From the NCBI GenBank assembly GCA_000743035.1, contig CP008936.1, forward strand, positions 1,530,001 through 1,562,000: 32,000 nt of DNA, read 5' to 3'. The notes below the pieces were generated by a model, which had not been told where the DNA came from, did no database searches, and worked only from the letters and a program-made list of their open reading frames with translations. Below are positions 3,375 through 32,000 of this stretch, piece after piece (the first letter of the stretch is position 1; every line of letters starts with the position of its first letter). The position numbers were made by a program, and so were the translations under genes. Origin of the DNA: Candidatus Paracaedimonas acanthamoebae. GTDB taxonomy: Bacteria; Pseudomonadota; Alphaproteobacteria; Caedimonadales; Caedimonadaceae.

Positions 3375-4343
3375 ATGAGCTACAAACCTCCCTTCATGAT
3401 TACTCCTAGGATTTTCTTTCTTTCTCAAGAGGTATCTCATATTCTTGGGGCTCTTGAAGGAGCAAGACTCAATATAGCACCCATCAAGCTTAGAAAAGAA
3501 AACAACATCAAAACAATTCAAGCATCCCTTTCTATTGAAGGAAACACTTTAAGTCTTGAACAAGTCAGTCATATCCTTGAAGGTAAGCCTGTTGTTGGGC
3601 CAAAGAAGGATATTATTGAAGTTCAAAATGCTATAGAAACTTACGCTTGTTTTGATGAATTTAATCCCTTGTCTGTTAGAGATTTTTTGCATGCTCATAA
3701 GCTTCTTATGAAAGGGCTTATAGAAGAAGCAGGACAATGGCGCTCCAAAGGAGTTGGTATCTTCAAAGGGGGGCAAGTAAAGCATATGCCGCCCCCAGCA
3801 AAACGTGTGCCTGACCTTATGGAAGATTTATTTGGCTTCTTAAAAAATGATCAAGAAACCCCCTGGCTTCTTAAAGCTTGTATATTTCACTATGAGCTTG
3901 AGTTCATCCATCCTTTTTCAGATGGAAATGGAAGGATGGGACGCTTGTGGCAACAGCTGCTGCTTGCTAAAGAAAACCTTGTTTTTAAGTACGTAACCGT
4001 TGAAGAGCTTATTAAGGCACGTCAACGAGAATATTATAGTGTTCTTGCAGAGTGCGACCAAGAAGGGGCATCAACAAAATTTATAGAGTTCTCTTTAAAG
4101 CTCGTTCTTGAGGCCCTGCAACAATATAGGAACATTACTAGTCCTACAGTTAATGATTCTAGGTCTCGTCTTGAGTATGCAAAAGATAAGCTTTCAGACG
4201 CATGGTTTTTACGCAAGGATTATATGGATATCTTTAAGGATGTTTCAACATCGACTGCAAGCCGGGATCTCTTACTTGGGGTAGAGGAGAATATCCTTAA
4301 GAAGCGCGGTACAAAGAACCAAACGAGCTATTATTATCTATAA
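3375..4343 (+). CDS. Fic family protein (AMPylase-type) with an N-terminal inhibitory-helix motif
   Basis: Canonical Fic motif HPFSDGNGRMGR (HPFx[D/E]GN[G/K]R). The upstream SLSIEGN matches the [S/T]xxxE[G/N] auto-inhibition motif. The C-terminal region looks like a winged helix. Confidence 0.85.
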   Translation: MSYKPPFMITPRIFFLSQEVSHILGALEGARLNIAPIKLRKENNIKTIQASLSIEGNTLSLEQVSHILEGKPVVGPKKDIIEVQNAIETYACFDEFNPLSVRDFLHAHKLLMKGLIEEAGQWRSKGVGIFKGGQVKHMPPPAKRVPDLMEDLFGFLKNDQETPWLLKACIFHYELEFIHPFSDGNGRMGRLWQQLLLAKENLVFKYVTVEELIKARQREYYSVLAECDQEGASTKFIEFSLKLVLEALQQYRNITSPTVNDSRSRLEYAKDKLSDAWFLRKDYMDIFKDVSTSTASRDLLLGVEENILKKRGTKNQTSYYYL

Positions 4344-4921: not shown

Positions 4922-5843
4922 AACCTCAGCTCGATATAAGAGGCGTCATTTTTGTGATTGCTTTTTCGAAAGTTATGCTTGGCTTTTTAGGTTTTAAAGA
5001 ATAAGCAAGGAGAGATGAAAGAACATTAGCAAAGTAATTCTGAACTGAGCGATGTCTTGTATGTTGAAGGTGTAAAATTGCTTTGAGTTGACCAATAACA
5101 GACTCTATAACACCTCTTTTATTGAGCCACCATTTTCTAATGGGCTCTAGGAACTGTTTTTTCATATTCCGCTTAAGTCTAGTGATAAGTTCTATATTTG
5201 AAGCTTTAAGAGTTTGAGAAAGCTTTTTACTCAAGTATCCTTTATCGCCAAAGAGCCATCCTTTAAGTCCTTGTGTGAGGGTTTGAACAACAGTGCGATC
5301 ATCTGTGCTTCCTGACGTTATTTTGAAATGCATGAGCTCTCCTTTATCATTAATGATAAGATGAAGTTTAAAACCAAAGAACCACCCTGTTGAGGTCTTT
5401 CCCCATTTTGCAAAATTTTCAAAAACTTTATGGCGTCCTATACGCCAATTGTCACACACTGGTAATTTAGTTGAATCAATAAAATACCGCCCTGTCTTTT
5501 CTGCAGGAATTTGCACCAATAAAAGAAGAAGGGGCATTATGGCCAAAGGAATTAGCTCAAGGAAACGGTTATAACTCACTAAGGTTGGAAAGGCATCTTT
5601 ATAGTATTGAGATAAACCACTCTTATAAAAATCCTTAAATGTTCGATAATGGCTTAACTAAAATAAAACGAGAATAGTCATAATCTCTGAGATAGACAAT
5701 CTACAAGAACGGCGGCGTTGGCCCTTAGAATTAGGCAGGAGTTTTACAGCACTTCTGTTCTCAAATTGCTTGCAAAAATCATCAATAAAGCAGAAAATTT
5801 CTTCTAAGGGGACCATAAAACCTCCTTTAAGTTGGTAGCTTAA
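4922..5843 (-). mobile_element. IS982-family insertion sequence (inner boundary approximate)
   Basis: Contains an IS982-type DDE transposase. The outer end AACCTCAGCTCGATATAAGAGG is repeated inverted at 7664..7701. The inner end near 5821-5843 is only an imperfect inverted match. Confidence 0.65.
4926..5816 (-). pseudogene. IS982-family transposase interrupted by an in-frame TAG
   Basis: The track ORF 4926..5579 (IDSTKLPVC..., GWFFGFKLHLIINDKGEL..., LFGDKGYLS) continues in the same frame upstream to the ATG at 5816 (MVPLEEIFCFIDDFCKQFE...). An in-frame stop lies at 5660-5658. The whole frame spans 297 codons including its two stops (internal TAG and terminal stop), a typical IS982 transposase size. 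Confidence 0.75.
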
Positions 5844-9338: not shown

Positions 9339-9830
9339 TTAATTATTATTTTTTGCCTTCTTTCTTCGAAGAGCTTTTTCAAGTTTCTCTTGAGCATAAT
9401 CTTTATGTTCTTGAGTAATTTCTTGAATTTGTTGGCCTTGCAAATCATATCGATGAGTGCCATTGATAACAACTTTTAAATAATCAAAGTTATTGGTGTA
9501 AAATGTGAGGGCGTCTCGTACTTTCGCTTTTGAAGGGGAACCTTCTTGCTCAAGAAAGGGATAAAGATCTTTATCAATGTTAAGCTTGAGAGGTTTTAAG
9601 TCTTTAGGATTAAAGCAAGCAGGAAATTGCTCATAAAGCCAAGTTAAAACGGCTTTAATTCCTTCTCTCTTCTTCTGCTTAGCATCACGCTCTTTTTGTT
9701 TCTGTTCCTTTCCTTGTCTGCGCTTCTCTTTCTCTGCTTGTTCATGAAGCGGCTTAAGCGCTTGGAAGAGCTGGGTTTGCTTTTGTAAACTTAAAGGTTT
9801 CTTTAATGTAAGCTTGGGTTTACCGGTCAT
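9339..9830 (-). CDS. ProQ/FinO-family RNA-binding protein with a Lys-rich N-terminal extension
   Basis: LTWLYEQFPACFNPKDLKPLKLNIDKDL...VRDALTFYTNNFDYLK parallels the E. coli ProQ N-terminal domain (FLAERFPHCF...PLKIGIFQDL...LRSALRLYTSSWRYL). Confidence 0.8.
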   Translation of the reverse strand: MTGKPKLTLKKPLSLQKQTQLFQALKPLHEQAEKEKRRQGKEQKQKERDAKQKKREGIKAVLTWLYEQFPACFNPKDLKPLKLNIDKDLYPFLEQEGSPSKAKVRDALTFYTNNFDYLKVVINGTHRYDLQGQQIQEITQEHKDYAQEKLEKALRRKKAKNNN

Positions 9831-10616: not shown

Positions 10617-11294
10617 TTAACTGCTATTACCATGCTTGTAAGCCTCATTAAGGAGCTCACACTCATGCAAGGCTGCATCCAGAAAGAGTTGTTGTATTTC
10701 TGCTCTCTCTGTTTTTGAGATTGTTTGGATGAGCTGATCAAGTGATTGAATAATTCTTACCGTTTGCTCTTCTGCATCCAGGGAAGTGCAATGCTTAATG
10801 AATTGCTTATAAGGATGATTATAAGTATTGAGTCTCAAGCAACGTTTGTGCAATTGGGTGGCAAGCCAAAATCGTGGCAGGATAGCTGTAAGGATAGACA
10901 GGAATAATCTTTTTTCAATTGAAGCCTTCAAAAAGCCAATATATTCTTTGCAAGCAGCTGTTAAGTTGTAGGGGGTTCCCTTAAACTTATCTAACTGGAT
11001 GCTAAGACCACCCGCTGACATGAGAGAAAGTTGCGCATTTTGAATAAGAATTCGCTTAATGCATTTTGGATAATTTAGCTTGGATAGAAGGATCATCTCC
11101 TCAGAAAGAAAACGCCAGACACGTTCTTGTTGGTTAAGAAAGTAAGTAAACTGCTTCTCTTTTAAATCCCCATTGAATAAATGCTCATAAAAAGGATGCT
11201 TGAGAACACCCTTATGAAGATATTGAAGAGGACTCTCGACCATCTTCAGGAAAGAAGAGTCTAATTCCTCTAGTTTTGATGAAGGCTTATCCAT
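10617..11294 (-). CDS. TenA/heme-oxygenase-like fold protein (catalytic Cys apparently absent)
   Basis: 225 aa. HPFYEHLFNGDLKEKQFTYFLNQQ, ILPRFWLATQL, NHPYKQFIKH and a C-terminal ...ECELLNEAY follow the TenA pattern (HPF...G.L....F..Y..QD, PC.W.Y, npY..WI, E..FW..AY). PR replaces the PC motif. Confidence 0.5.
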   Translation of the reverse strand: MDKPSSKLEELDSSFLKMVESPLQYLHKGVLKHPFYEHLFNGDLKEKQFTYFLNQQERVWRFLSEEMILLSKLNYPKCIKRILIQNAQLSLMSAGGLSIQLDKFKGTPYNLTAACKEYIGFLKASIEKRLFLSILTAILPRFWLATQLHKRCLRLNTYNHPYKQFIKHCTSLDAEEQTVRIIQSLDQLIQTISKTERAEIQQLFLDAALHECELLNEAYKHGNSS

Positions 11295-12233: not shown

Positions 12234-13112
12234 ATGGATAAAGAAAAACTAAGGCAGATTGACTTAGATAAGCTTCAAAATTTCTATTCTCTATTCAGGG
12301 AAGGATCTATCGCAAAAGCTTCAGCGGCGACAGGTGTATCACGCAGAACGTATTATCACGATTTGGCTGTGTTAGAGGCGGCTTTTAATACCAAACTATA
12401 TTTAAGTGGGAAGAAGAATTTTGTCTTAACAGATGAAGGTAGAAAGCTAGCAGATTTCTGCAAAAGCACAATCGATTCTCTCTCAAGAGTTACTGAAGAA
12501 GAACAGGTTTTTGATCAGGGTAACTTAATAATACATACTACACCTAGTATTGGTGCCTATTACTTTCCTGAGATAATTAGACAATTTAGAAAGAAATATC
12601 CTAACATATGCATAGACCTTTTAACTGGTGCAGAATATTTTACCTCTAAACATCATGACTTCGATGTGTCCATAGGACCATACCTTGCCGATAAGCGCGA
12701 TCTTTCACAGCATCTTCTGAAGAATTTCGAATATGGTTATTTTGCTTCACAAGAATATCTTGCAAGATATGGTACTCCTGAGACGGCTGAAGACCTAAAG
12801 AACCATAATCTCTTATGCTACTCAGGAGAGCATTTGATTCCTTTGGACATCCTTGAAAAAAATAAAACTGTTGTTAAATCAAATTTATATATTGCGTTAT
12901 TGAATATGTGTTTAAAAGGAGTAGGTATATGCTCTCTACCTTTAGATCTTTATACTATAAAGATGTCTGATAACAAGGACGCCAAACTTATTCGTATTTT
13001 GCCAAACATCATTTCTGAGAATGACTCTTCATATTTTTCTTTTTATAGGTTTACAAAGAAAGAAAAAGCTATTAGAGATTTATTTGACATCATTAAAAAT
13101 TTATTAAAATAA
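12234..13112 (+). CDS. LysR-family transcriptional regulator (full length)
   Basis: 292 aa. The N-terminal HTH reads LQNFYSLFREGSIAKASAATGVSRRTYYHDLAVLEAAFNTKLY...LTDEGRKL. A periplasmic-binding-like effector domain follows. Confidence 0.85.
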   Translation: MDKEKLRQIDLDKLQNFYSLFREGSIAKASAATGVSRRTYYHDLAVLEAAFNTKLYLSGKKNFVLTDEGRKLADFCKSTIDSLSRVTEEEQVFDQGNLIIHTTPSIGAYYFPEIIRQFRKKYPNICIDLLTGAEYFTSKHHDFDVSIGPYLADKRDLSQHLLKNFEYGYFASQEYLARYGTPETAEDLKNHNLLCYSGEHLIPLDILEKNKTVVKSNLYIALLNMCLKGVGICSLPLDLYTIKMSDNKDAKLIRILPNIISENDSSYFSFYRFTKKEKAIRDLFDIIKNLLK

Positions 13113-13123
13113 TATAAAATATT

Positions 13124-13153
13124 TTGTCAATAAAACTGAGTATCGCATAGATT
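13124..13153 (+). promoter_or_regulatory. Candidate sigma70-type promoter for the peptide/dehydrogenase operon
   Basis: TTGTCA (13124-13129), 18-bp spacer, TAGATT (13148-13153). It lies about 30 nt upstream of the first mini-ORF's Shine-Dalgarno sequence. Confidence 0.3.
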
Positions 13154-13185
13154 ACTTATTTTCTATCACTGTAAGGAGAATAGTT

Positions 13186-13263
13186 ATGAAAAAAATTAGC
13201 AAATACTCCCAAAACTCTGTACAACCAATGCGCATGTGCTTCATTTCTCTGTGCAAATCTTAA
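13186..13263 (+). CDS. Mini-ORF A: 25-aa Cys-containing peptide MKKISKYSQNSVQPMRMCFISLCKS (candidate RiPP precursor)
   Basis: AAGGAG lies 7 nt upstream of the ATG. It is a paralogue of mini-ORF B, with the amino-acid pattern conserved through synonymous codon differences. It is below the ORF-track length cutoff. Confidence 0.55.
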   Translation: MKKISKYSQNSVQPMRMCFISLCKS

Positions 13264-13299
13264 TTTGGTTATTTAGTTTGTTATTTTAAGGAACAACAT

Positions 13300-13386
13300 A
13301 TGAAGAAACTTAATGTTTTTAGGCAACATTCTATTTGTCCAATAAGAATGTGTTTAGTCGCTTTATGCATTCCCAATGACAAATAG
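13300..13386 (+). CDS. Mini-ORF B: 28-aa Cys-containing peptide MKKLNVFRQHSICPIRMCLVALCIPNDK (candidate RiPP precursor)
   Basis: AAGGAA lies upstream of the ATG. It shares the motif Q-x-S-x-x-P-x-R-M-C-x-x-x-L-C with mini-ORF A. Its 3' end overlaps the ATG of the dehydrogenase (13376) by 11 nt. Confidence 0.55.
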   Translation: MKKLNVFRQHSICPIRMCLVALCIPNDK

Positions 13387-14458
13387 CAAGCTTCAGTACA
13401 ATAGAAATGCCTTCTATTACCTGAAAGATGGGAAAGTTATTGCATGCAATACTCTCTCACAAGAGTATTATGAGCTAGAGGAAGATTATTTCAGGCGCTT
13501 ACTCACAGCTAGCAATAACAATTCGCATCCTCTTCCAAACGACAATATTAATAAGGAACTTTTAGAAGGTGGCCTCTTACTAGAGGATAAAAGTGAGCCT
13601 TCTATTTCATGGGAGGGAGATCCTATCTCGTTCTTCTGTCATCAAGGGACAAGGATTTTATCTCAATATACACCAAAGCTTAGCGATGAAGAGGTATGTA
13701 GTGACTTTATAAGCCTTTCTTCCTCTTCTGCTAAGGAGATCCCAGCTCGTTATATCCCTGAATATAGCGAGCGTATCCCGCTTCAAGAACCAAACCTTGA
13801 CTATTTCAATGATTCATCCCTATACAATGCTGCCAAGAATCGTAAAACTTGCCGAAACTTTGAAAATAAATCTGTAAAGATAGATTTATTGAATTCTCTC
13901 CTCTATTTTTGCTTTGGGCCAATCCATGGAAAACTATGGGAAGATTTTGAGCAGTATAATATCCCTTCCTATGGTTTGAGACGCTCTTCCCCTTCTGCCA
14001 CAGGATTACAAGGATGTGATGCTTACCTTGTTGCCTTAAATGTCGAGGGCTTAGAAAAAGGCATATATTATTATTCAAGTGACGAACATTATCTTTATCG
14101 TCTCAAAAACACACTTGATGATGAGAGCTTAATTTATACAACAAATGATCAATTCTGGGCTAAGAACTTAAGTGCTGGGATCTTTATTGTTAATGATATG
14201 AGACGGACTTGGGTTAAAGATAAGAAAGCAAGAGGATACCTCGCGGCCTACTTAGAAGCAGGACACATTTCACAGACAATATTGCTGGCTGCAACGGCTT
14301 TAAAGTTACAAACCTGGCTTACAGGAACTTTTCGAGATGATGTAGTAGATAACTTACTACAAATTAAGGGATCACCTTGCTTTGCTTCAGTCTTTGTGGG
14401 ATTGGGGTATGGAGATAATGGTTCTATTCCTAAAAAGTTTATTGAAACTATCCGTTAA
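13376..14458 (+). CDS. SagB-type dehydrogenase-domain protein (nitroreductase fold) with an approximately 150-aa N-terminal extension
   Basis: NRKTCRNFENKSV (R.S.R.F), SPSATGLQGCDAYLVA (PSAGG...Y), GIYYYSSDEHYLYRL (G.Y.Y....L) and YLEAGHISQTILLAATALKLQTWLTGTFRDDVV match the SagB/McbC-like dehydrogenase domain pattern. Confidence 0.75.
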   Translation: MTNSKLQYNRNAFYYLKDGKVIACNTLSQEYYELEEDYFRRLLTASNNNSHPLPNDNINKELLEGGLLLEDKSEPSISWEGDPISFFCHQGTRILSQYTPKLSDEEVCSDFISLSSSSAKEIPARYIPEYSERIPLQEPNLDYFNDSSLYNAAKNRKTCRNFENKSVKIDLLNSLLYFCFGPIHGKLWEDFEQYNIPSYGLRRSSPSATGLQGCDAYLVALNVEGLEKGIYYYSSDEHYLYRLKNTLDDESLIYTTNDQFWAKNLSAGIFIVNDMRRTWVKDKKARGYLAAYLEAGHISQTILLAATALKLQTWLTGTFRDDVVDNLLQIKGSPCFASVFVGLGYGDNGSIPKKFIETIR

Positions 14459-15313
14459 CAACCCCTTTAACTCTTTCCGCTTAACAATAAGACTTCCTAG
14501 AATAATAAGCATTCCCCCTGCTACCTCTTTGAATGAGGGGACATATCTCCATAAGAGATATCCTAAGATGATAGACCAAATAACAGTTGAGTACTCTAGA
14601 GGGGAGAGTTTCACCAACTCTTCTTTTCGATAAGCAAAAATTAGGCATTGAAAAGCAAGGAAATGGATAATGGCAATCAGGATGAAAAGAGGAATATCTG
14701 TAATCTGTAGAATAATTTTCTCATAAGAAAATGCGCCACTCATTAAGAAACAAATAAGAGTATAACTCGCATACAAAGCAAAATTATCAATGTGGGCAAT
14801 CCGCTTTGTTATAACGCAAGCTGAGGCATAAAAAATTGAAGATAAGAAGGCAAACATAAACCCTAGATTTAAGTTCATATCTGAAAATGGATATGACAGG
14901 ATTAAAGCGCCTATAAAGCTTAAAATAATAGGAATAATTACTGAACTGGAAAGCGCTTCTTTTAGGAATATAGCCGAAAGAACAGAAATAAAAATAGGGG
15001 ACGTAAAAGCCATAAATCCATAAGAAGATAAAGGAAGATGTTTCAAGCTATAAATTGTTAAGAAGAGTGCTCCAGCCGCAAATACATTGCGTAAAAGGTG
15101 TAAACCTTTATCAGGTTTATAGGCAGAAAATCCTTTTTTATATGTAATCCAGAGAGCAAATATAAGAGCTATTGAAGACCTAAAGAATATAATCTGAGCA
15201 GGTGCATATGAATTTGTTAAATACTTCTCTAACGCTTCGCATAAAGAATAAAGGAACATAGATAAAGCCATTAAAGCATAGCCAGAAGCTTTAATATTCT
15301 CTAGCAAGATCAT
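14387..15313 (-). CDS. EamA/DMT-superfamily transporter
   Basis: 308 aa, about 10 hydrophobic helices in two similar halves. It is convergent with the dehydrogenase gene, and their 3' ends overlap by 72 nt. Confidence 0.8.
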   Translation of the reverse strand: MILLENIKASGYALMALSMFLYSLCEALEKYLTNSYAPAQIIFFRSSIALIFALWITYKKGFSAYKPDKGLHLLRNVFAAGALFLTIYSLKHLPLSSYGFMAFTSPIFISVLSAIFLKEALSSSVIIPIILSFIGALILSYPFSDMNLNLGFMFAFLSSIFYASACVITKRIAHIDNFALYASYTLICFLMSGAFSYEKIILQITDIPLFILIAIIHFLAFQCLIFAYRKEELVKLSPLEYSTVIWSIILGYLLWRYVPSFKEVAGGMLIILGSLIVKRKELKGLLTDSFNKLFRNRTIISIPQSHKD

Positions 15314-17460: not shown

Positions 17461-19644
17461 TTAAGCGATAAGCCACTCTTTCAGTTTGGTATATCTTTTT
17501 TTGGCTTGTTGATCTCTCACTGCCATAGATAGAGCTTTCTTTTGTCCTACAAGGATCACAAGCTGTTTTCCACGCGTGATGCCAGTGTAAAGAAGATTCC
17601 GCTTAAGCATAGGGTAGTGTTGCATCATGAGCGGAATAACAACGGCAGGGTATTCAGATCCTTGAGCTTTATGGATGGTTGTAGCATAAGCAAGCACCAC
17701 TTCATCAAGTTCGCCAAAATCATAAGTGATGAGCCTTCCTTCATATTCTACTTTGAGTTCTTGTTCTTCTTGGCTGATTTCTCTGATGTAGCCAATATCC
17801 CCATTATAAACATCTTTGTCATAGTTATTGGCAATCTGCATCACCTTATCATCCACACTATAACTTGAGCCAAAGCGTTCGACCCTATTTTGTAGCGAAG
17901 GATTTAAGGTTTTCTGAAGCTCTATATTAAGTGACCTTGCGCCCACTCCACCTCTGTTCATAGGACATAAGACTTGAATCTCTAAAATAGGATTAAAGCT
18001 AAAAGCTTTAGGGATTCTATTCTTTACAAGCTCCAGTATTTTATCCTTACACTCTTCTGGTGTCTGGCTTTCAATAAAATAAAAGTCAGATTTGTCTTCT
18101 TTTTGAGGGAAAAGTGGCATAAGTCCTTGGTTAATGCGATGAGCATTTGAAATAATCTGGCTTTGAGCAGCTTGGCGGAAGATTTCTGTAAGCCTCGCAA
18201 CCGTAAAAACTCCTGACTTAATTAAGGCATTTAAAACAGCTCCAGGCCCAACAGAAGGGAGCTGATCAATATCTCCCACTAAAATAAGGGCAGAGTGAGG
18301 GGGAAGGGCTTTGAGAAGAGAATGCATCAAGGGAACATCCAACATGGAGACTTCATCTACGACAAGAAGCTGACATTCAAGAGGTTCTTCTTCGTTCCTT
18401 TTAAAGTCATGTTTTTCTGGATCGTATTCTAAAAGCCTATGGATGGTTTTCGCTTCAAAGCCTGTGGTTTCTGATAAACGTTTAGCAGCACGCCCCGTTG
18501 GCGCTGTAAGTAGGATTTCTAGATGTTTAGCGGCCAATATTTTTAACAGACTTTTAATGAGGGTTGTCTTTCCAACCCCAGGGCCCCCTGTAATAATGGC
18601 AACTTTAGAATTAAAAATAAGCTTAAGGGCTTCTTTTTGGCTTTCTGCTAAGGTCATTGAAAGGCGCTCTTCAACCCACGGGATGGCTTTATCAATCTCA
18701 AGCACTCCCCAAGGGGGCTTACATGAGGAAAGTTTTTTGAGAGATTTTGCAATCAGGGTTTCAGCAAGATAGAGGCCTTTTAAGAATACACAAGCTTCAC
18801 CCTCAAGAGTATCCCCCACTAAGTCACCAGTTGTTAGTTCCGACTCAAGAACAGGTTTAACACTATCAACGGGTATTTCTAAAGCCTGTGCGGTTGAAGT
18901 TAAGAGCACCTCTATCGGAAGACCGCAATGGCCTTCATCCATGGCCTCGAGTAAGATATGGCTGATTCCTGCTCTGATTCTTAAAGGCGAGTCTTTGGCA
19001 ATTCCAACCTTTTGCGCAATTTGATCCGCCGATTTAAAGCCAATGCCTCTGATTTCTCGGGCAAGACAATACGGATCTTCCTTTATAACTCTTATGGCAT
19101 CCGTCCCAAAGGTTTTATAGATCCTAACAGCCCTTGCGGTACTAATGCCATGTTGATAGAGAAAGACCATAATCTCTCTAATAACTTTTTGATCATCCCA
19201 GGCTCTTGTCATCATGGTCATGCGATACTGACCAATTCCTTCAACAGTCCGCAATAAATGAGGAGTTGTTTCAATCACATCGAACACTTGAGATCCAAAA
19301 GCTTTAACCAGCTTTTTAGCATACACAGGGCCAATGCCCTTGATCATGCCTGAGCTTAGATATTTTTCAATGCCTTCTTCTGTATTTGGCGCTGTTGTGT
19401 TGAGGTAATTTGCTTTAAACTGGGGGCCGTAGTTTTTGTCATTGATCCATATCCCTGAGGCTTGGATAAACTCGCCAGCAGAGATCATGCTTGCATGCCC
19501 TACAACAGTGACAAGATCTTTCTGCCGCTCAGCTTTAACACGTAAGACGCAATAACCATTTTCCGCATTATGGTAAGTGACCCGTTCAATAAGGCCAGTC
19601 AGAAGGTCAAGCTGTGGTGAAGAGGAAGTAACGCTCATAAGCAC
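17461..19644 (-). CDS. recD2: RecD2-type SF1B DNA helicase (RecD/TraA family)
   Basis: 727 aa. The N-terminal reads ERVTYHNAENGYCVLRVKA...GIWINDKNYGPQFKA. HhH-like segments follow, then Walker A ITGGPGVGKTT, Walker B LLVVDEVSMLD and a C-terminal TIHKAQGSE. Confidence 0.9.
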   Translation of the reverse strand: MLMSVTSSSPQLDLLTGLIERVTYHNAENGYCVLRVKAERQKDLVTVVGHASMISAGEFIQASGIWINDKNYGPQFKANYLNTTAPNTEEGIEKYLSSGMIKGIGPVYAKKLVKAFGSQVFDVIETTPHLLRTVEGIGQYRMTMMTRAWDDQKVIREIMVFLYQHGISTARAVRIYKTFGTDAIRVIKEDPYCLAREIRGIGFKSADQIAQKVGIAKDSPLRIRAGISHILLEAMDEGHCGLPIEVLLTSTAQALEIPVDSVKPVLESELTTGDLVGDTLEGEACVFLKGLYLAETLIAKSLKKLSSCKPPWGVLEIDKAIPWVEERLSMTLAESQKEALKLIFNSKVAIITGGPGVGKTTLIKSLLKILAAKHLEILLTAPTGRAAKRLSETTGFEAKTIHRLLEYDPEKHDFKRNEEEPLECQLLVVDEVSMLDVPLMHSLLKALPPHSALILVGDIDQLPSVGPGAVLNALIKSGVFTVARLTEIFRQAAQSQIISNAHRINQGLMPLFPQKEDKSDFYFIESQTPEECKDKILELVKNRIPKAFSFNPILEIQVLCPMNRGGVGARSLNIELQKTLNPSLQNRVERFGSSYSVDDKVMQIANNYDKDVYNGDIGYIREISQEEQELKVEYEGRLITYDFGELDEVVLAYATTIHKAQGSEYPAVVIPLMMQHYPMLKRNLLYTGITRGKQLVILVGQKKALSMAVRDQQAKKRYTKLKEWLIA

Positions 19645-21965: not shown

Positions 21966-24900
21966 ATGGCCTTAGCGCATGGTCGCTTAAAAGTAATCTC
22001 CCGTTCTAAACGAAATACCGTGCGAGCCCTTGCTTATCGCACAGGCTGCAAGATCTATGATCATCGGACTGGTGAACTCATGACTACCCGCAAGAAAATG
22101 CATGAGGTGCAGCATGTAGAACTCTTACTTCCTCAGGACGCGCCAGAATGGGCTTTGGAGCTAAGAAATCTTATAGCAGCTGATCGCCAAAAAGGCATGC
22201 AGAAGTTTTCTGATATTGTAGAAGCACACGAGAAAAGAAAAGACGCTCAAGTTTATCGAGAATACGAGTTCGCTTTGCCACGAGAATTTATAGATGAGCA
22301 AGGCATAAAACTCGCGAATGAGTTCATTCAAGATCAGATGTGTGGCCAAGGAATGACTGTGCTTGCTAATTTTCATTTTGATGTTGATGAAGACACAGGG
22401 GAGAGAAAACCCCACTGTCATGCTTTAATGCTCACTCGAAGACTTACAGAAAAAGGATTATCATTAAAAAAAGAAGTTGAGTGGAATCGAAGAAGCTTAG
22501 GGGCAGAACTTAGAGAACAGCTTGTTGCTTACACAAACTTTCATCTTAAAATGTATAGTTTTGATGAAAGGCTTGATTATCGTTCTTATGCTGAAAGAGG
22601 CATTGAACTTGAGCCTCAGCCTAAGCGGGGAACAAACGTTAAGGCAGTGGAATTAAGAGAAGGGAACAACCCTCAAGATCTCTTCTCAAGTGTTGCCTCA
22701 GAAAAAGCTATTGCCTTTCGTGCAACCAAGCTGAGAAATATCTACCGTATTATCAGAAATCCTGACATCGTTATTCGTGATATTGTAAGCAAGCATCATG
22801 CTACTTTTATGTGGGGAGATGTTGAGAAAGTACTCAATCGTTATATTGATGATAAAGACCTCTACAAGCAAGTAGAGCAGAAACTTAAATCTTCAAAAGA
22901 ACTCGTATTGCTTAGGTATGACACAATTAAACATAAGGATGGCAGCATTGAAGATCATTCCATTTACACGACCAGGACGATGCTGGAATCAGAGATTAAT
23001 TTGGTAACTTTAGCAGAGAGACTCAGCAAGGAACAAACCCATAAGGTAGACAATGATAAAATTGGTATTATTGTTCATCAATTTGACCAAAAGCTTTCAA
23101 AGTATGGTGGCCTTTCACCTGATCAAAAGAAAGCCCTTCGCCACATAACAGCACCAAACCAGCTTTCATGCATTGTAGGCTATGCCGGTGCTGGCAAGAC
23201 CACAGCTTTAGAGGCTACTAAAGAAATTTGGGAAGCAGAGGGCTATAAGGTTTATGGTCTTGCGCCCACAGGACGGGCAGCACAGAACCTTTCGCAATCA
23301 GGTATATCCTCACAAACACTTCACAAATTTCTGTACTCTCATAAAGAAGGAAGGTGTCAGTATAAGGCTAATTCGGTCCTTATCCTTGATGAAGCAGGGA
23401 TGGTGGACACGGAAAGGTTTGATGAGTTTTTACAAGCGGTTGATGATTTAAAGGTTAAAGCAGTTATTGTTGGGGATGGGGCACAATTGCAGCCTGTTGA
23501 AGCGGGTCCTGCTTTTAGACTTGTGACTGAGAAGGTAGGAATGTCCCACCTTGAAAAGGTGGTTCGCCAGAAAGAAGCATGGCAACAGGAAGCAACAAAG
23601 CTTTTTGGGACTCTTAAGACAAGAGAAGCTCTTCAAGCTTATCATCAAAAGGGGTATGTGCAGTTTATTGAAGAAAAAGAGATCCCTATTGCTGAACTCA
23701 TTGAGACAAGAAATCATTTTAAAATTGTTGAAACATACAACCTTTCCCGTCGTATGGTGGGTAATATTTACCATTCTATGGTTGAGGATATTAAAAAAGA
23801 TAATCCTGAAGAAAAGAACCCCCATTATTATCTTCAGAGCCATGAAGATTATACTCTTTATCGAAAATGGTGGGATCTTAAGGAGGTATGTGCGCGCCAT
23901 ATGAAGCAGAATCTTCATGAATGTCGACCTTTGATGAAAGAGCTCGGTGTTGACCCTCAACACTTTGCAGAACAGTTTGTTGATAAAGGGATGAGCCTTA
24001 GGGAACAAAAGCTAGAAGCAACCCACTTAGCCCGTCTCTGGGAGCTCCCACAATTAAATCCTTACCAAAGGAAGCATATCTGTGAGCTGAGAAATGAGAC
24101 AAAGAAAGCCCTCATTCAGGAATGGTATGCATCCTTTAAGGAAGACGCTCAAAAATCCCGCCTTCTTATGACCTACAGTAAGGCAGATACAGCTATGCTT
24201 AATGAGGAAGCCCGCCATCTTATGAAACAAGATGGTGTGGTAGCAAAAGAAGAATATCTCCTCACTATCTATAAAGAAGACGAAGATGTTTTTGGAGACA
24301 AGATTATTACAAAAGAAGAGAAGTACTTTGCCAAAGGCGATCGTATCCTTTTCATGAGAAATAATAATGGTCTCAAAGTTAGAAAGGGAACATTAGGGGT
24401 TATCTTAGAAATTAACCGCCATAAGATTAAAGCCAAGCTTGATCATACTGGCGATATCGTCTCTTTTGCGCCTAAGCTTTATCCTTACTTTGACCAAGGC
24501 TGGGCGGCTAACATTCATAAATCTCAAGGGGTAACTGTTGACCGAGCATTCTTATTAGCTACCCATGAGACCTACCGTAATCTGGCTTATGTGGGTATGA
24601 CAAGACATCGAGAGTGGGGGAAAATCTTTGGCTCCAAACTTGATTTCTGGCGAGAGGAGATCTTTTTCAAACGGCTTTCTTCATCTCAAGAAAAGCTCTC
24701 AAGCTTGGATTATATGAAATCCTATGATAATATAATTCTTCCAAAGCAAAATTTTAAACTTCAGGAGATCCTTAACCGCCTTGGCAATGAACTAGAGGCA
24801 ATGCGTTTCGTGTCCAAACAAGCGTGGCAGAGTATCGCAGAGCGGTTTTTAAGTAAGATTCCCGAGCAACAAGAGATCCGTATCTCTCAAAGAAGTATCA

Positions 24901-25418
24901 GTGAGCACATCAGGGCAAAAGAGTTATTGGAAGAACATGGTACCGAAAATAATAAGCTTCATAAAAAGTATATTGAACAAGAGTATTCAATCAAAAATGC
25001 TTCCAACCCAAACACCACAAGAACATCTAAAAATGAAACTGATAGTATTGGGATTCGCCAGCCAGCAGAGGAAAAAGACTTTAAGCAACCACTCTCTCTT
25101 CATAAGGTGGCTCAAGAGCCTCAAACGCTAGCAAGTGACAATCTAAAAGTACAACAGCAGCAGCAATTGAAGACAAGAGCAGAGCTAACAGGGCTTGAAA
25201 GAATAAAGTCTCTCATTGATGCTCATAAGCTTACTCGTACAGAAGCAGAGCGAAAACAAACTGAGGCTACTCTCAGGCAGTACGCCCAAGAACTTTACAA
25301 GCAAGATCCAACCTTTAAAAGTATTAGAAATAAAGATGCAGAAATAACTAAGCAGGTTAGAGCCATTCTATTTGAAGGAGAAAGAAACAAGATTAATGAC
25401 AGGGAACATCAGAGATAG
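21966..25418 (+). CDS. traA: Ti-plasmid-type TraA relaxase-helicase (MobA/MobL MOBQ relaxase + RecD-like helicase)
   Basis: The N-terminal reads MALAHGRLKVISRSKRNTVRALAYRTGCKIYDHRTGE with the catalytic Tyr region. The histidine triad region reads KPHCHALM. The helicase domain has Walker A VGYAGAGKTT, Walker B VLILDEAGMVD and a later NIHKSQGVT. Confidence 0.9.
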   Translation: MALAHGRLKVISRSKRNTVRALAYRTGCKIYDHRTGELMTTRKKMHEVQHVELLLPQDAPEWALELRNLIAADRQKGMQKFSDIVEAHEKRKDAQVYREYEFALPREFIDEQGIKLANEFIQDQMCGQGMTVLANFHFDVDEDTGERKPHCHALMLTRRLTEKGLSLKKEVEWNRRSLGAELREQLVAYTNFHLKMYSFDERLDYRSYAERGIELEPQPKRGTNVKAVELREGNNPQDLFSSVASEKAIAFRATKLRNIYRIIRNPDIVIRDIVSKHHATFMWGDVEKVLNRYIDDKDLYKQVEQKLKSSKELVLLRYDTIKHKDGSIEDHSIYTTRTMLESEINLVTLAERLSKEQTHKVDNDKIGIIVHQFDQKLSKYGGLSPDQKKALRHITAPNQLSCIVGYAGAGKTTALEATKEIWEAEGYKVYGLAPTGRAAQNLSQSGISSQTLHKFLYSHKEGRCQYKANSVLILDEAGMVDTERFDEFLQAVDDLKVKAVIVGDGAQLQPVEAGPAFRLVTEKVGMSHLEKVVRQKEAWQQEATKLFGTLKTREALQAYHQKGYVQFIEEKEIPIAELIETRNHFKIVETYNLSRRMVGNIYHSMVEDIKKDNPEEKNPHYYLQSHEDYTLYRKWWDLKEVCARHMKQNLHECRPLMKELGVDPQHFAEQFVDKGMSLREQKLEATHLARLWELPQLNPYQRKHICELRNETKKALIQEWYASFKEDAQKSRLLMTYSKADTAMLNEEARHLMKQDGVVAKEEYLLTIYKEDEDVFGDKIITKEEKYFAKGDRILFMRNNNGLKVRKGTLGVILEINRHKIKAKLDHTGDIVSFAPKLYPYFDQGWAANIHKSQGVTVDRAFLLATHETYRNLAYVGMTRHREWGKIFGSKLDFWREEIFFKRLSSSQEKLSSLDYMKSYDNIILPKQNFKLQEILNRLGNELEAMRFVSKQAWQSIAERFLSKIPEQQEIRISQRSISEHIRAKELLEEHGTENNKLHKKYIEQEYSIKNASNPNTTRTSKNETDSIGIRQPAEEKDFKQPLSLHKVAQEPQTLASDNLKVQQQQQLKTRAELTGLERIKSLIDAHKLTRTEAERKQTEATLRQYAQELYKQDPTFKSIRNKDAEITKQVRAILFEGERNKINDREHQR

Positions 25419-29718: not shown

Positions 29719-30246
29719 TCACTTGCCTTGAATTCTTTGGCCAGGGCCAAACTTAAGAAATATTGAGAAAGGTCTTAGCTCGGATGATATAGCGCCACCA
29801 GGAGTACTATTTCCGTAAATTTTGTCAAATTTATCCATGTTATCTTTTCTATTTATACCCTTGTAAGCTAATAAAGCATGAGCTTTTGCCTTGGCAATTA
29901 TAAGATCATCACCATGTGTTGTTGCCACATCGTTATCTGTCAATAATATTACTTTTTTTGCAACCTCTGTTGCAATCTCAGGGGACTCCCAAAGCTTCTT
30001 TAAATTTAACTTACAAAACTTATTTACTTTATGGTCATTAAAACAAAATTTATCGCTTGCCGCTTTAAAATGTTGAGAGATGAATTGCGTATTTTTTATG
30101 TCATTTGGAGTTAATCCTCTAAATATCTCATTCATCAATTCATGCGGTAGATCTTCTATCGGGACATGTGACGCATTACATACAAATGAAGATAATAGTA
30201 CATTTGAAATAACTGTAGCAGTTAAAAGATGTTTTTTATAAATCAT
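29719..30246 (-). CDS. F-box-like domain protein with a signal-like N-terminus
   Basis: 175 aa. LPHELMNEIFRGLTPNDIKNTQFISQHFKAAS fits the F-box consensus (LP.E....I...L...D......V.K.W). The hydrophobic N-terminus reads LLTATVISNVLLSSFV. Confidence 0.6.
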   Translation of the reverse strand: MIYKKHLLTATVISNVLLSSFVCNASHVPIEDLPHELMNEIFRGLTPNDIKNTQFISQHFKAASDKFCFNDHKVNKFCKLNLKKLWESPEIATEVAKKVILLTDNDVATTHGDDLIIAKAKAHALLAYKGINRKDNMDKFDKIYGNSTPGGAISSELRPFSIFLKFGPGQRIQGK

Positions 30247-30514: not shown

Positions 30515-32000
30515 CTAAAGGCTAAGGTTTAAGCTACGTGTTTGAGACCATTGTTCATGCCTCTCCTTTCCTCTGTCTCGAAGGTGGTTAATTTCCTGCA
30601 TCCTTTCTTCTTGGGAGCCATTAAAGAGCTCAGGGTGCTGCTCAAGGAGATAAGCTAAATTAAGGCAAGCAAAGTCATGACCTTTCCTTGTTGCTTTTTC
30701 ATAGTTCAGGAAGGCGCCTTGTAAGTCCCCTTTTCTCTCAAGACAAAACCCTAAGCTATTTTGGGCAGGGGAACATCCTTGCTCTGCAGCGTGGCGATAG
30801 TAGCCTTCAGCTTCTTCAAGATTCCCTTGATGCTCTAACAGGCGTCCTAGATTGAGTTGTGCTTCTGTATGGCCTTGGTTTGCAGCTTGGCGGTAATAAA
30901 ACTCGGCTTGATTCATCTTGCCCTCTATCTCATGATGCAAGGCAAGGGTACATTGGCCTTCGGCATCTCCTTGATGAGCCAGGTGAGACAAAACCTCTAT
31001 GGCTTCACTAAGCTTACCTTGGTGCTCTAAAATGAGACTTAAATCAAACTGAGCATCCGCATCGCCTTGCCTTGCCGCTTCGCGATAAAAGATCTCTGCT
31101 AATCTTAACCATTTATCCCTAAAGAGACTTTTTGCTTTTTGCTCCGCCCATAGATAACAATACTCTGCCATATTGGAAGCTTTAGTCCGGGACATATTCG
31201 GGAAGGATATCATGGCTTGAGGAAGCAAAATAGCCTCTCCTTCACTCCTCTCTGTATAAACATCCTCTAAGCTAACTTCTTGATTAACCCGCCTGAATAA
31301 AGCTGTGATGGGCTCACTGCTTGGAAGGTTAAAAAGTTTCAAGAGATAAAGAGCTTTATAAGGGGCTGCATAAGTTTGGGTAAATTCTATAAATTCTTGG
31401 GAGAACAAGCTTTTCTGTAAAGGAAAGATCGGGGATGTTCTGGCATAAGCTTCAAGTGTGGTTTGTTGATCATTCTCTAATTTTTCTTGAGCGAAGGCCT
31501 CCTGAATCCTTGCGGCTGTGATTTTGCTTTCAAAAAAAAGAGGGAGAAGGGACGAAGTGCCGAGGACCTCTTTAAGAACAGGGGGATTTGTGCAGATCTT
31601 TTCAAGGGCGAGAGGAGAAGCAAAAAACTGTTGGAATAATCCATCTTGGCCCTCTTTGCTGTCTTCCAACTTCTTCCATAAAATAAATAAAGGCTTTGTA
31701 TGAATCTGCTTAGGGAGAGAAAGCCATTCATCATGCGCAATTTGGTGCCATGCCTTACACACCCTTTTGACAGTTTTTAAGTTTTGAAAGCTTAAGGAGT
31801 CAAAAATATGAAGCCAGACTTCATCAGGCAACGGGGTCCCTTCAAGGACTTCTAATAAAGGCTCTTCTGGAGAAGAGGGGAGAGTCCTTTGGCGTTTCTT
31901 CGCAGGTTCAGCAGAATAAGCTTCATCCTCTGTCCTAGACGGCGAAGCTAAAAGGCTTGTGGCCGACAAACTCAAAACAAATATAAACCCTAAAGATTTC
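30515..32000 (-). CDS. F-box + Sel1-repeat (SLR/TPR-like) protein; N-terminus probably beyond the window
   Basis: The F-box reads LPDEVWLHIFDSLSFQNLKTVKRVCKAWHQIA. At least four Sel1 repeats are present (AARQGDADAQFDLSLILE, LAHQGDAEGQCTLALHHE, AANQGHTEAQLNLGRLLE, AAEQGCSPAQNSLGFCLE). The frame stays open upstream of the TTG at 31975 (..KSLGFIFVLSLSATSLLA) to the window edge. Confidence 0.8.
   Translation of the reverse strand, partial: KSLGFIFVLSLSATSLLASPSRTEDEAYSAEPAKKRQRTLPSSPEEPLLEVLEGTPLPDEVWLHIFDSLSFQNLKTVKRVCKAWHQIAHDEWLSLPKQIHTKPLFILWKKLEDSKEGQDGLFQQFFASPLALEKICTNPPVLKEVLGTSSLLPLFFESKITAARIQEAFAQEKLENDQQTTLEAYARTSPIFPLQKSLFSQEFIEFTQTYAAPYKALYLLKLFNLPSSEPITALFRRVNQEVSLEDVYTERSEGEAILLPQAMISFPNMSRTKASNMAEYCYLWAEQKAKSLFRDKWLRLAEIFYREAARQGDADAQFDLSLILEHQGKLSEAIEVLSHLAHQGDAEGQCTLALHHEIEGKMNQAEFYYRQAANQGHTEAQLNLGRLLEHQGNLEEAEGYYRHAAEQGCSPAQNSLGFCLERKGDLQGAFLNYEKATRKGHDFACLNLAYLLEQHPELFNGSQEERMQEINHLRDRGKERHEQWSQTRSLNLSL

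Follow-up and report, generated by a model that had tools for sequence, protein, structure and literature searches.

Catalysis by azoline dehydrogenases involves a Lys-Tyr pair, represented by K201/Y202 of McbC, and in ThcOx, RRE domains, the recognition elements for peptides that are made on ribosomes and modified after translation (RiPPs), are fused to an McbC-like oxidase (PMC6395948). The precursors of tiarins (trifolitoxin-like; TfxA, TfxB, and TfxC) comprise 23-65 aa and are encoded, with a strong Shine-Dalgarno (SD) sequence, directly upstream of RRE-bearing dehydrogenases of the SagB/nitroreductase type that depend on flavin mononucleotide (FMN), and a near-invariant Gln follows a variable, specificity-determining residue in these precursors (bioRxiv 10.64898/2025.12.02.691738). 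Nitroreductase/SagB-type enzymes in YcaO-less RiPP clusters are described as rare and functionally uncharacterized, and the nitroreductase domain of PflD makes Z-dehydroPhe in a YcaO-less RiPP of Pseudomonas (PMC12636437). The present study concerns a window of 32,000 nt, i.e., the whole stretch of DNA that was analysed, from Candidatus Paracaedimonas acanthamoebae (contig CP008936.1, positions 1,530,001 to 1,562,000), in which two unannotated mini-open reading frames (mini-ORFs), referred to as pepA and pepB, directly precede the gene of a SagB-type flavin enzyme. These mini-ORFs most likely encode substrate peptides of the neighboring enzyme, and the three genes together most likely constitute a minimal and undescribed kind of modified-peptide gene cluster. 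Neither the peptide family nor a cluster of a stand-alone RRE-SagB enzyme, a peptide, and an exporter was found described in the accessible literature.

Both mini-ORFs are located on the forward strand. The putative A-type precursor gene pepA (13186..13263) encodes a peptide of 25 aa, MKKISKYSQNSVQPMRMCFISLCKS, and the putative B-type precursor gene pepB (13300..13386) encodes a peptide of 28 aa, MKKLNVFRQHSICPIRMCLVALCIPNDK. As a preliminary description of this DNA had proposed, an SD sequence can be read directly before each of them, namely AAGGAG (13173..13178), 7 nt ahead of the pepA ATG, and AAGGAA (13288..13293), 6 nt ahead of the pepB ATG. The stop codon of pepB (TAG, 13384-13386) lies 11 nt within the 360-aa ORF that starts with the ATG at 13376; the stop/start overlap reads ATGACAAATAG, and the enzyme gene has no obvious SD sequence of its own. 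The paralogy of the two peptides is confirmed by 11 identities at 23 ungapped positions, a value reached by 3 of 10^6 shuffles, and the runner-up among the 6,328 pairs of small ATG ORFs compared in the window has 8 identities. The nucleotides at codon positions one, two, and three are identical in 13, 18, and 9 of the 23 codons, respectively, which is typical of coding sequence, and four common residues are encoded by different codons. The codon differences described earlier for Arg, Cys, and Leu are present at Arg16 (CGC in pepA, AGA in pepB), Cys18 (TGC, TGT), and Leu22 (CTG, TTA), Cys23 having the same codon in both. Conservation at the protein level, as claimed in that description, is therefore upheld, whereas the accompanying claim that the DNA is not conserved is a relative statement, since the nucleotide identity is 58% and is concentrated in codon positions one and two. 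Moreover, an RNA element or riboswitch was considered and rejected because the mini-ORF region has no Rfam match and the minimum-free-energy fold of positions 13155-13420 is not significant in comparison with shuffles (z = -0.38).

The loci of relatives of the enzyme, numbered with the prefix L, were fetched from genomes, metagenomes, and assemblies and amount to 1.1 Mb in all. Close relatives are few: a word-seeded search of 5.8 billion proteins yielded 40 matches. The closest genome, with 93% amino-acid identity for the enzyme, is a metagenome-assembled genome (MAG) labelled Caedibacter sp. 38-128, followed by MAGs labelled Alphaproteobacteria and Paracaedibacteraceae. Homologous mini-ORFs are located in one to three tandem copies, on the same strand and directly 5' of the enzyme gene, in at least 12 lineages including that of the window. 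Two copies are present in L001/L081 (the orthologues of pepA and pepB), L002/L083 (MNKICKFTQISVQPIRMPFIPD and MKKLNIFGQSSGQPWRMCFISQ), L162 (the second copy with decay), and L087 (paralogous), and three paralogous copies are present in L085; single copies are found in L161 (MKKLNIFNQKSVQPSRMCLVTTYYKDEK), L084/L164 (MKKIDACKQSGVMPFRMCFISQ), L167 (MKELKIFEQSPVVPGRMMFVFK), L173 (MTKINLFNQKQTASYRSMFVRKA), and, in divergent form, L169, and a partial copy in L166 is cut by the contig end. L001, L002, and L081 stem from SCNpilot bioreactor samples. Copy number, which had been suggested as a check, accordingly varies from one to three. With the hidden Markov model (HMM) of the peptides, pepA itself has E = 6e-14. 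Its orthologues occur in L001, L162, and L002, and those of pepB in L001, L161, L002, L084, and L166.

When a profile of 16 family peptides was run on all six-frame translations of the fetched loci, its matches (E ≤ 1e-6) were confined to sites immediately 5' of the enzyme gene and in the orientation of that gene, and the strongest match in the noise had E = 1.6. The proportions of non-synonymous (pN) and synonymous (pS) differences were obtained by Nei-Gojobori counting for codons 2-22: pN across the orthologues is 0.02-0.36. For pS, the comparison with L001, which is the nearest relative, gave 0.08-0.19, and the other comparisons gave 0.5-1.2, which is near saturation. Between pepA and its orthologue in L162 (L162_A), for example, 14 synonymous differences were counted at 11.7 sites and 6 non-synonymous differences at 51.3 sites. 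A purine-rich, SD-like tract precedes all 18 orthologous peptide ORFs, and the distance from the end of the last copy to the enzyme ATG is -11 to +21 nt in every lineage, so that the overlap noticed earlier in the window is part of a recurrent arrangement; the exact value of -11 nt also occurs in L001, L161, and L162. From the specificity of the profile, the pN and pS values, the SD-like tracts, and the abutment to the enzyme ATG, it follows that the mini-ORFs are real genes whose protein products are under purifying selection and that they are genetically linked to the enzyme gene. The earlier suggestion that the peptide, and not a motif in the DNA or RNA, is the target of selection agrees with pN values far below pS, with the Rfam result, and with the insignificant fold.

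The family consensus is MKK[IL]x[IV]FxQ(x6)Rxx[FL], in which M1 and R16 are invariant and Q9 is found in 14 of 15 aligned peptides, the preceding residue 8 being variable. The longer motif of the preliminary description and its C-x4-C pair are specific to one clade and are not kept in the family: Cys18 is replaced by P, M, I, or L in other members, and Cys23 is missing from the 22-aa orthologues (…RMCFISQ, …RMPFIPD). In L001 (3812-3901), a 1-nt deletion right after Cys23 changes the tail of pepA from KS* to NLDLVI*, and the first 23 residues differ at one position; the frameshift is tolerated there, and the tail beyond approximately residue 22 is therefore unconstrained. Frameshifts and stops in the orthologues had been named as counter-evidence, and some decay does occur, in three cases. 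The second copy in L162 (1452-1538) has ATA for ATG, an intact SD sequence (AAGAGG), and the changes Q9K and P14H at otherwise conserved positions, and is either a decaying copy or one with a non-canonical start. The peptide region of L175 (1325-1408) extends across three reading frames and is frameshifted or ambiguous, and in L172 (2126-3397) the enzyme gene is split, its RRE part being called as a separate ORF of 60 aa, and has no peptide; joint decay and assembly errors in raw Logan contigs are both possible causes for these two loci.

The downstream gene (13376..14458, forward strand), previously described as a dehydrogenase, encodes a SagB-family, nitroreductase-fold protein of 360 aa, which is a putative peptide-modifying enzyme. 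It scores 85.4 bits with TIGR03605 (cut-off 78.4) and matches the Pfam family Nitroreductase (PF00881) at 1e-14; by HMM coordinates, the catalytic domain spans residues ~141-346 (13796..14413). In the AlphaFold2 model (pLDDT 90.7), three β-strands and two helices at residues 12-64 precede the nitroreductase fold, and the best match in the Protein Data Bank (PDB) is ThcOx over the full length (E = 6e-16; TM 0.63-0.68), followed by BmdC, McbC, and AlbA. When residues 1-78 were modelled separately (pLDDT 84), the Foldseek matches were almost all RRE domains, including TbiB1 with its leader, the RRE of PbtF, SuiB, ThcOx, a lasso-peptide B1 protein, CteB, and McbB, with probabilities of 0.6-0.99 and weak E-values of 0.03-0.3. 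Judging from these predicted structures, the enzyme is a fusion of an N-terminal RRE-like peptide-recognition domain (residues ~6-70; 13391..13585), in which three β-strands are followed by helices, with an FMN dehydrogenase of the SagB type. Two FMN-type motifs, RKTCRNF and RRSSPSATG, are conserved. According to the family alignment and to alignments with 3eo7 and BmdC, Lys281-Asp282 (14216..14221) occupies the position of the catalytic Lys-Tyr of azoline dehydrogenases. Lys-Asp is shared by most of the closer homologues, a few of which differ, with KS in P0020 and KN in P0010, and a distant clade keeps Lys-Tyr. An exhaustive profile search gave 176 representative enzyme clusters (50% identity) at E ≤ 1e-30, and of 181 retrieved family sequences, 90 carry the motif KY and 38 carry KD. 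The change from Tyr to Asp suggests a different base or a different substrate geometry.

Furthermore, the peptides and the enzyme belong to a conserved module, LysR -> peptide(s) -> enzyme <- EamA. A LysR-family transcriptional regulator of 292 aa (12234..13112, forward strand; Pfam HTH_1 and LysR_substrate) is encoded directly upstream of the peptides, and a LysR gene holds the same position in L162-L165, L167, L169, L172, L173, and L175. On the reverse strand, a 308-aa transporter of the EamA/DMT family (14387..15313; Pfam EamA, 2.9e-23), a putative exporter, is encoded convergently, and its 3' end overlaps that of the enzyme gene by 72 nt (14387-14458). The convergent, overlapping arrangement is found in L161-L167 and L173, and the overlap was determined as 29-99 nt in L161, L162, L164, L166, L167, and L173. 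When the window's 19 ORFs of 150 aa or more were scanned with Pfam, no YcaO, ThiF, E1-like, radical-SAM, lanthipeptide, or protease gene was detected, and the genes called in 13 related loci include no YcaO, ThiF, or E1-like gene.

The same layout has been found with unrelated peptides in two other groups of bacteria. In Pseudomonas (L005:3854-6252), an ORF of 24 aa, MNMEKINLEHKTSVGFHVMLGTSK, is followed by a KY-type RRE-SagB enzyme gene and a translationally coupled gene of a major facilitator superfamily (MFS) transporter; this unannotated peptide is kept in five contigs (L005, L089, L090, L091, and L093). The three-gene set is flanked by a 398-aa ORF upstream and a 659-aa ORF downstream. 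On megaplasmids of B. cereus E33L, B. pseudomycoides, and Priestia (L171:3838-6339, L176:2274-4849, and L177:2312-4833), an ORF of 26-29 aa (…FKPxENEYxxRVNxEHGETSPxK) with a strong SD sequence, followed in L171 by a hairpin, precedes the genes of an annotated "SagB/ThcOx family dehydrogenase" and an MFS transporter, and the peptide is unannotated in the records. The Pseudomonas and Bacillaceae peptides are conserved internally and are unrelated to the pepA/pepB family; the association of three unrelated peptide families each with a separate enzyme clade and an exporter is consistent with a precursor-enzyme-exporter logic. None of ten peptides taken from all three families is present in a collection of 15 billion predicted proteins, no NCBIfam match exists for them, and they are annotated nowhere, which bears out the earlier remark that such ORFs are invisible to routine annotation.

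On this basis, pepA and pepB are probably precursor peptides of a YcaO-independent, RiPP-like pathway. The precursor role implied in the preliminary description gains strong support from the RRE-like domain predicted on the enzyme, and, as far as the predicted fold is concerned, the locus has the generic layout of a RiPP cluster, with short precursor genes adjoining an enzyme with an RRE-like fold. Briefly, the LysR regulator would control a single transcript of pepA, pepB, and the enzyme gene, in which each peptide would be translated from its own SD sequence and the enzyme presumably by coupling to the last peptide. The peptide's N-terminus (MKK[IL]x[IV]F), which is basic and hydrophobic, would be bound by the RRE-like domain, probably as an additional β-strand, and the FMN-dependent SagB-type domain might then oxidize a residue in the R16-x-x-[F/L]19 region, both chemistry and site being speculative. 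Our guess is a Cα-Cβ dehydrogenation with the clade-specific Lys281/Asp282 in place of Lys-Tyr, because PflD provides a precedent and because AlbA, BmdC, and McbC are dehydrogenating oxidases of the same fold. The product, or a fragment of it cut out by housekeeping peptidases, may leave the cell via the convergently encoded EamA transporter.

Several points weigh against a precursor role. Translation, binding, and modification of the peptides are predictions from sequence. The RRE assignment depends on a predicted structure with weak Foldseek E-values, and sequence profiles miss the domain, both when 31 N-terminal segments are run through Pfam and when PDB sequences are searched with a profile. 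For a leader plus a core, the peptides are very short, the conserved part being nearly the whole peptide, and the module includes no protease or other tailoring gene. EamA transporters usually carry small metabolites and not peptides. In addition, one subclade of enzymes (L003, L004, L086, L168, and L174) has no LysR gene, no EamA gene, and no detectable peptide within ±4 kb. The members of this subclade have the N-terminus MKxKLYPNP…, keep the RRE-like N-terminus, carry the motif KD, KS, or KE, and are encoded in unrelated chromosomal contexts, after an ORF of 80-200 aa or a helicase gene; a search for conserved small ORFs around the enzyme genes of L003, L004, L168, and L174 gave only off-frame matches inside the enzyme gene.

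The mini-ORFs might alternatively be cis-regulatory leader peptides of the arrest or attenuation type, themselves functionless, whose translation, or ribosome stalling on Q…P-x-R-M-x-F, controls translation of the enzyme, perhaps in response to a small molecule. Like ErmCL, ErmAL, and TnaC, the mini-ORFs are short, follow an SD sequence, lie in the 5' leader of a gene, and have conserved internal residues. The last one invariably adjoins or overlaps the start of the enzyme gene, which lacks an obvious SD sequence, and the tail behind the internal conserved residues varies in length, a pattern shared with peptides in which stalling takes place at an internal codon. In ermA, leader peptides are known to occur in tandem. 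However, for the region of pepA and pepB neither an alternative or significant RNA structure that stalling could remodel nor an Rfam match was obtained, and with the 11-nt overlap there is no spacer that could accommodate an attenuator. It is also unusual for leader peptides to be present in one to three paralogous copies that each have an SD sequence, the downstream enzyme has its own predicted RRE-like domain, which would need a peptide partner, and the unrelated peptides at the same position in Pseudomonas and Bacillus fit a co-evolution of enzyme and substrate better than a motif for the ribosome tunnel. A regulatory leader is therefore considered unlikely.

A similarly small chance is given to the explanation that pepA and pepB are functional small proteins that the enzyme does not modify, such as a subunit or regulator of the flavoenzyme or a signal or toxin-like peptide. 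Purifying selection and synteny indicate an importance of the peptide and its association with the enzyme, and do not imply modification; the conserved part spans nearly the entire peptide, and the peptide-less subclade indicates that the enzyme can exist without an adjacent peptide. By contrast, all characterized RRE domains bind substrate leaders in RiPP enzymes (PMC6395948; bioRxiv 10.64898/2025.12.02.691738), a product pathway would agree with the tandem variable copies and the adjacent exporter, and no independent activity is obvious for peptides of 22-28 aa that have neither a signal nor a transmembrane segment.

Canonical thiazole formation of the kind known from linear azole-containing peptides (LAPs) and thiazole/oxazole-modified microcins (TOMMs), in which Cys of pepA and pepB would be cyclized by a YcaO protein encoded elsewhere and oxidized by the SagB homologue, is very improbable and was rejected. 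The enzyme does pass the SagB-family model, and the peptides of the window carry 2-3 Cys; however, neither the window nor any conserved module contains a gene for a YcaO or E1-like protein, the Cys are not conserved, several orthologous peptides having none at the aligned positions, and the catalytic Tyr is lost, with Asp in its place in most of the clade. Chance open frames, which AT-rich intergenic DNA yields in numbers (121 ORFs of at least 20 aa in 10 kb), have a negligible likelihood and were rejected because of the paralogy against shuffles, pN far below pS in at least 12 lineages, and the SD-like tract before each copy.

If the peptides are indeed precursors, the locus may define a new YcaO-independent RiPP class, a broader proposal that we make tentatively and hold slightly less probable than its opposite. 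The class would combine one to three precursors of 22-28 aa, a single RRE-fused flavoenzyme with the Tyr-to-Asp change, a new modification, and a small, exported, LysR-controlled product in protist-associated bacteria, and would form one branch of an unannotated superfamily (~176 enzyme clusters) with further peptide families in Pseudomonas and on B. cereus-group megaplasmids. Such a compact locus, with two peptides, one enzyme, and one exporter, is a possible entry to new chemistry, and a comparative series is available in at least 12 lineages with one to three copies and a natural switch from Lys-Tyr to Lys-Asp. Whole gene families are missing from annotation, and pipelines that start from called genes would miss the family peptides. 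The clusters in Pseudomonas and on plasmids of the B. cereus group suggest that small molecules derived from peptides and exported form a broad, hidden family, also in culturable organisms, in which the chemistry is solvable.

As for the surroundings of the module, a consensus scan of the forward strand found two promoter-like sites, TTGACA-18-AATAAT (13084-13113) and TTGTCA-18-TAGATT (13124-13153), which are position-consistent guesses because the number of such sites in the region does not exceed the shuffle expectation. A protein of the TenA/THI-4/PqqC family (10617-11294, reverse strand), encoded 2 kb upstream, was considered as a member of the module and rejected, since the related loci lack it, and is probably unrelated. 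An insertion sequence (DDE) transposase (4926-5579), a ProQ/FinO-family protein (9339-9830), a RecD2-like helicase (17461-19644), and a MobA/TraA-type relaxase (21966-25418) suggest a location of the module on a mobile element or close to one; an SRAP protein is also encoded in the window. A megablast comparison of the module with plasmids gave no match. Among the related loci, TraE and ParA/ParB are encoded in L169, and TraY and a ParE toxin in L167. An ORF with F-box and TPR domains according to Pfam (30515-31975, reverse strand) has a neighbor of 175 aa (29719-30246, reverse strand) that is similar by eye, and these ORFs, together with a Fic protein (3375-4343), suggest a bacterium living inside protists. 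In L164 (928-2650), a second LysR gene, a 2-oxoglutarate-Fe(II) oxygenase gene, and a second EamA gene are located 2-4 kb upstream of the peptide module and may represent another small LysR-controlled export module.

In comparison with known systems, the enzyme of the window shares its fold and family with SagB, McbC, and ThcOx, the azoline dehydrogenases of LAP/TOMM and cyanobactin pathways, and, as in ThcOx, a domain of the RRE type is predicted N-terminal to the FMN domain. Unlike these azoline dehydrogenases, it has no YcaO/E1-like partner, one RRE-like domain instead of two, and Lys-Asp instead of Lys-Tyr, and the substrate-like peptides, unlike LAP/TOMM precursors, have no conserved Cys, Ser, or Thr. 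The layout also resembles that of tiarins, and Q9 of the peptides, which follows a variable residue 8 and lies only nine residues from the N-terminus, may or may not correspond to the Gln of the tiarin precursors. A tiarin-like chemistry at this Gln is an alternative to the dehydrogenation proposed above. However, the window and all related loci contain a single nitroreductase-fold gene and not the TfxB-TfxC pair that defines tiarins; a TfxB-like protein of Rhizobium has only 31% identity over the catalytic domain and keeps Lys-Tyr, and the composition of the peptides is basic, unlike that of tiarin leaders. An immunity gene of the GNAT or duplicated aminoacyl-tRNA synthetase type, which is frequent and not obligatory in tiarins, is likewise absent from the window and the related loci. 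The best full-length NCBIfam score of the enzyme, 98.1 bits, is obtained with TIGR04511 (SagB_rel_DH_2, Xanthomonadaceae; "putative peptide maturation dehydrogenase") and lies far below the cut-off of 240. TIGR04511 proteins are also stand-alone SagB relatives adjoining a candidate peptide gene, but at the Xanthomonas locus L008 the sole candidate is a divergently oriented ORF of ~110 aa beside the enzyme gene, and that clade keeps Lys-Tyr. Finally, PflD, compared here by its description, carries a fused MNIO domain and acts, together with HEXXH enzymes, on a precursor of much greater length; as another YcaO-independent enzyme of the nitroreductase fold, it would by analogy provide the precedent for the chemistry proposed at F/L19 of pepA and pepB.

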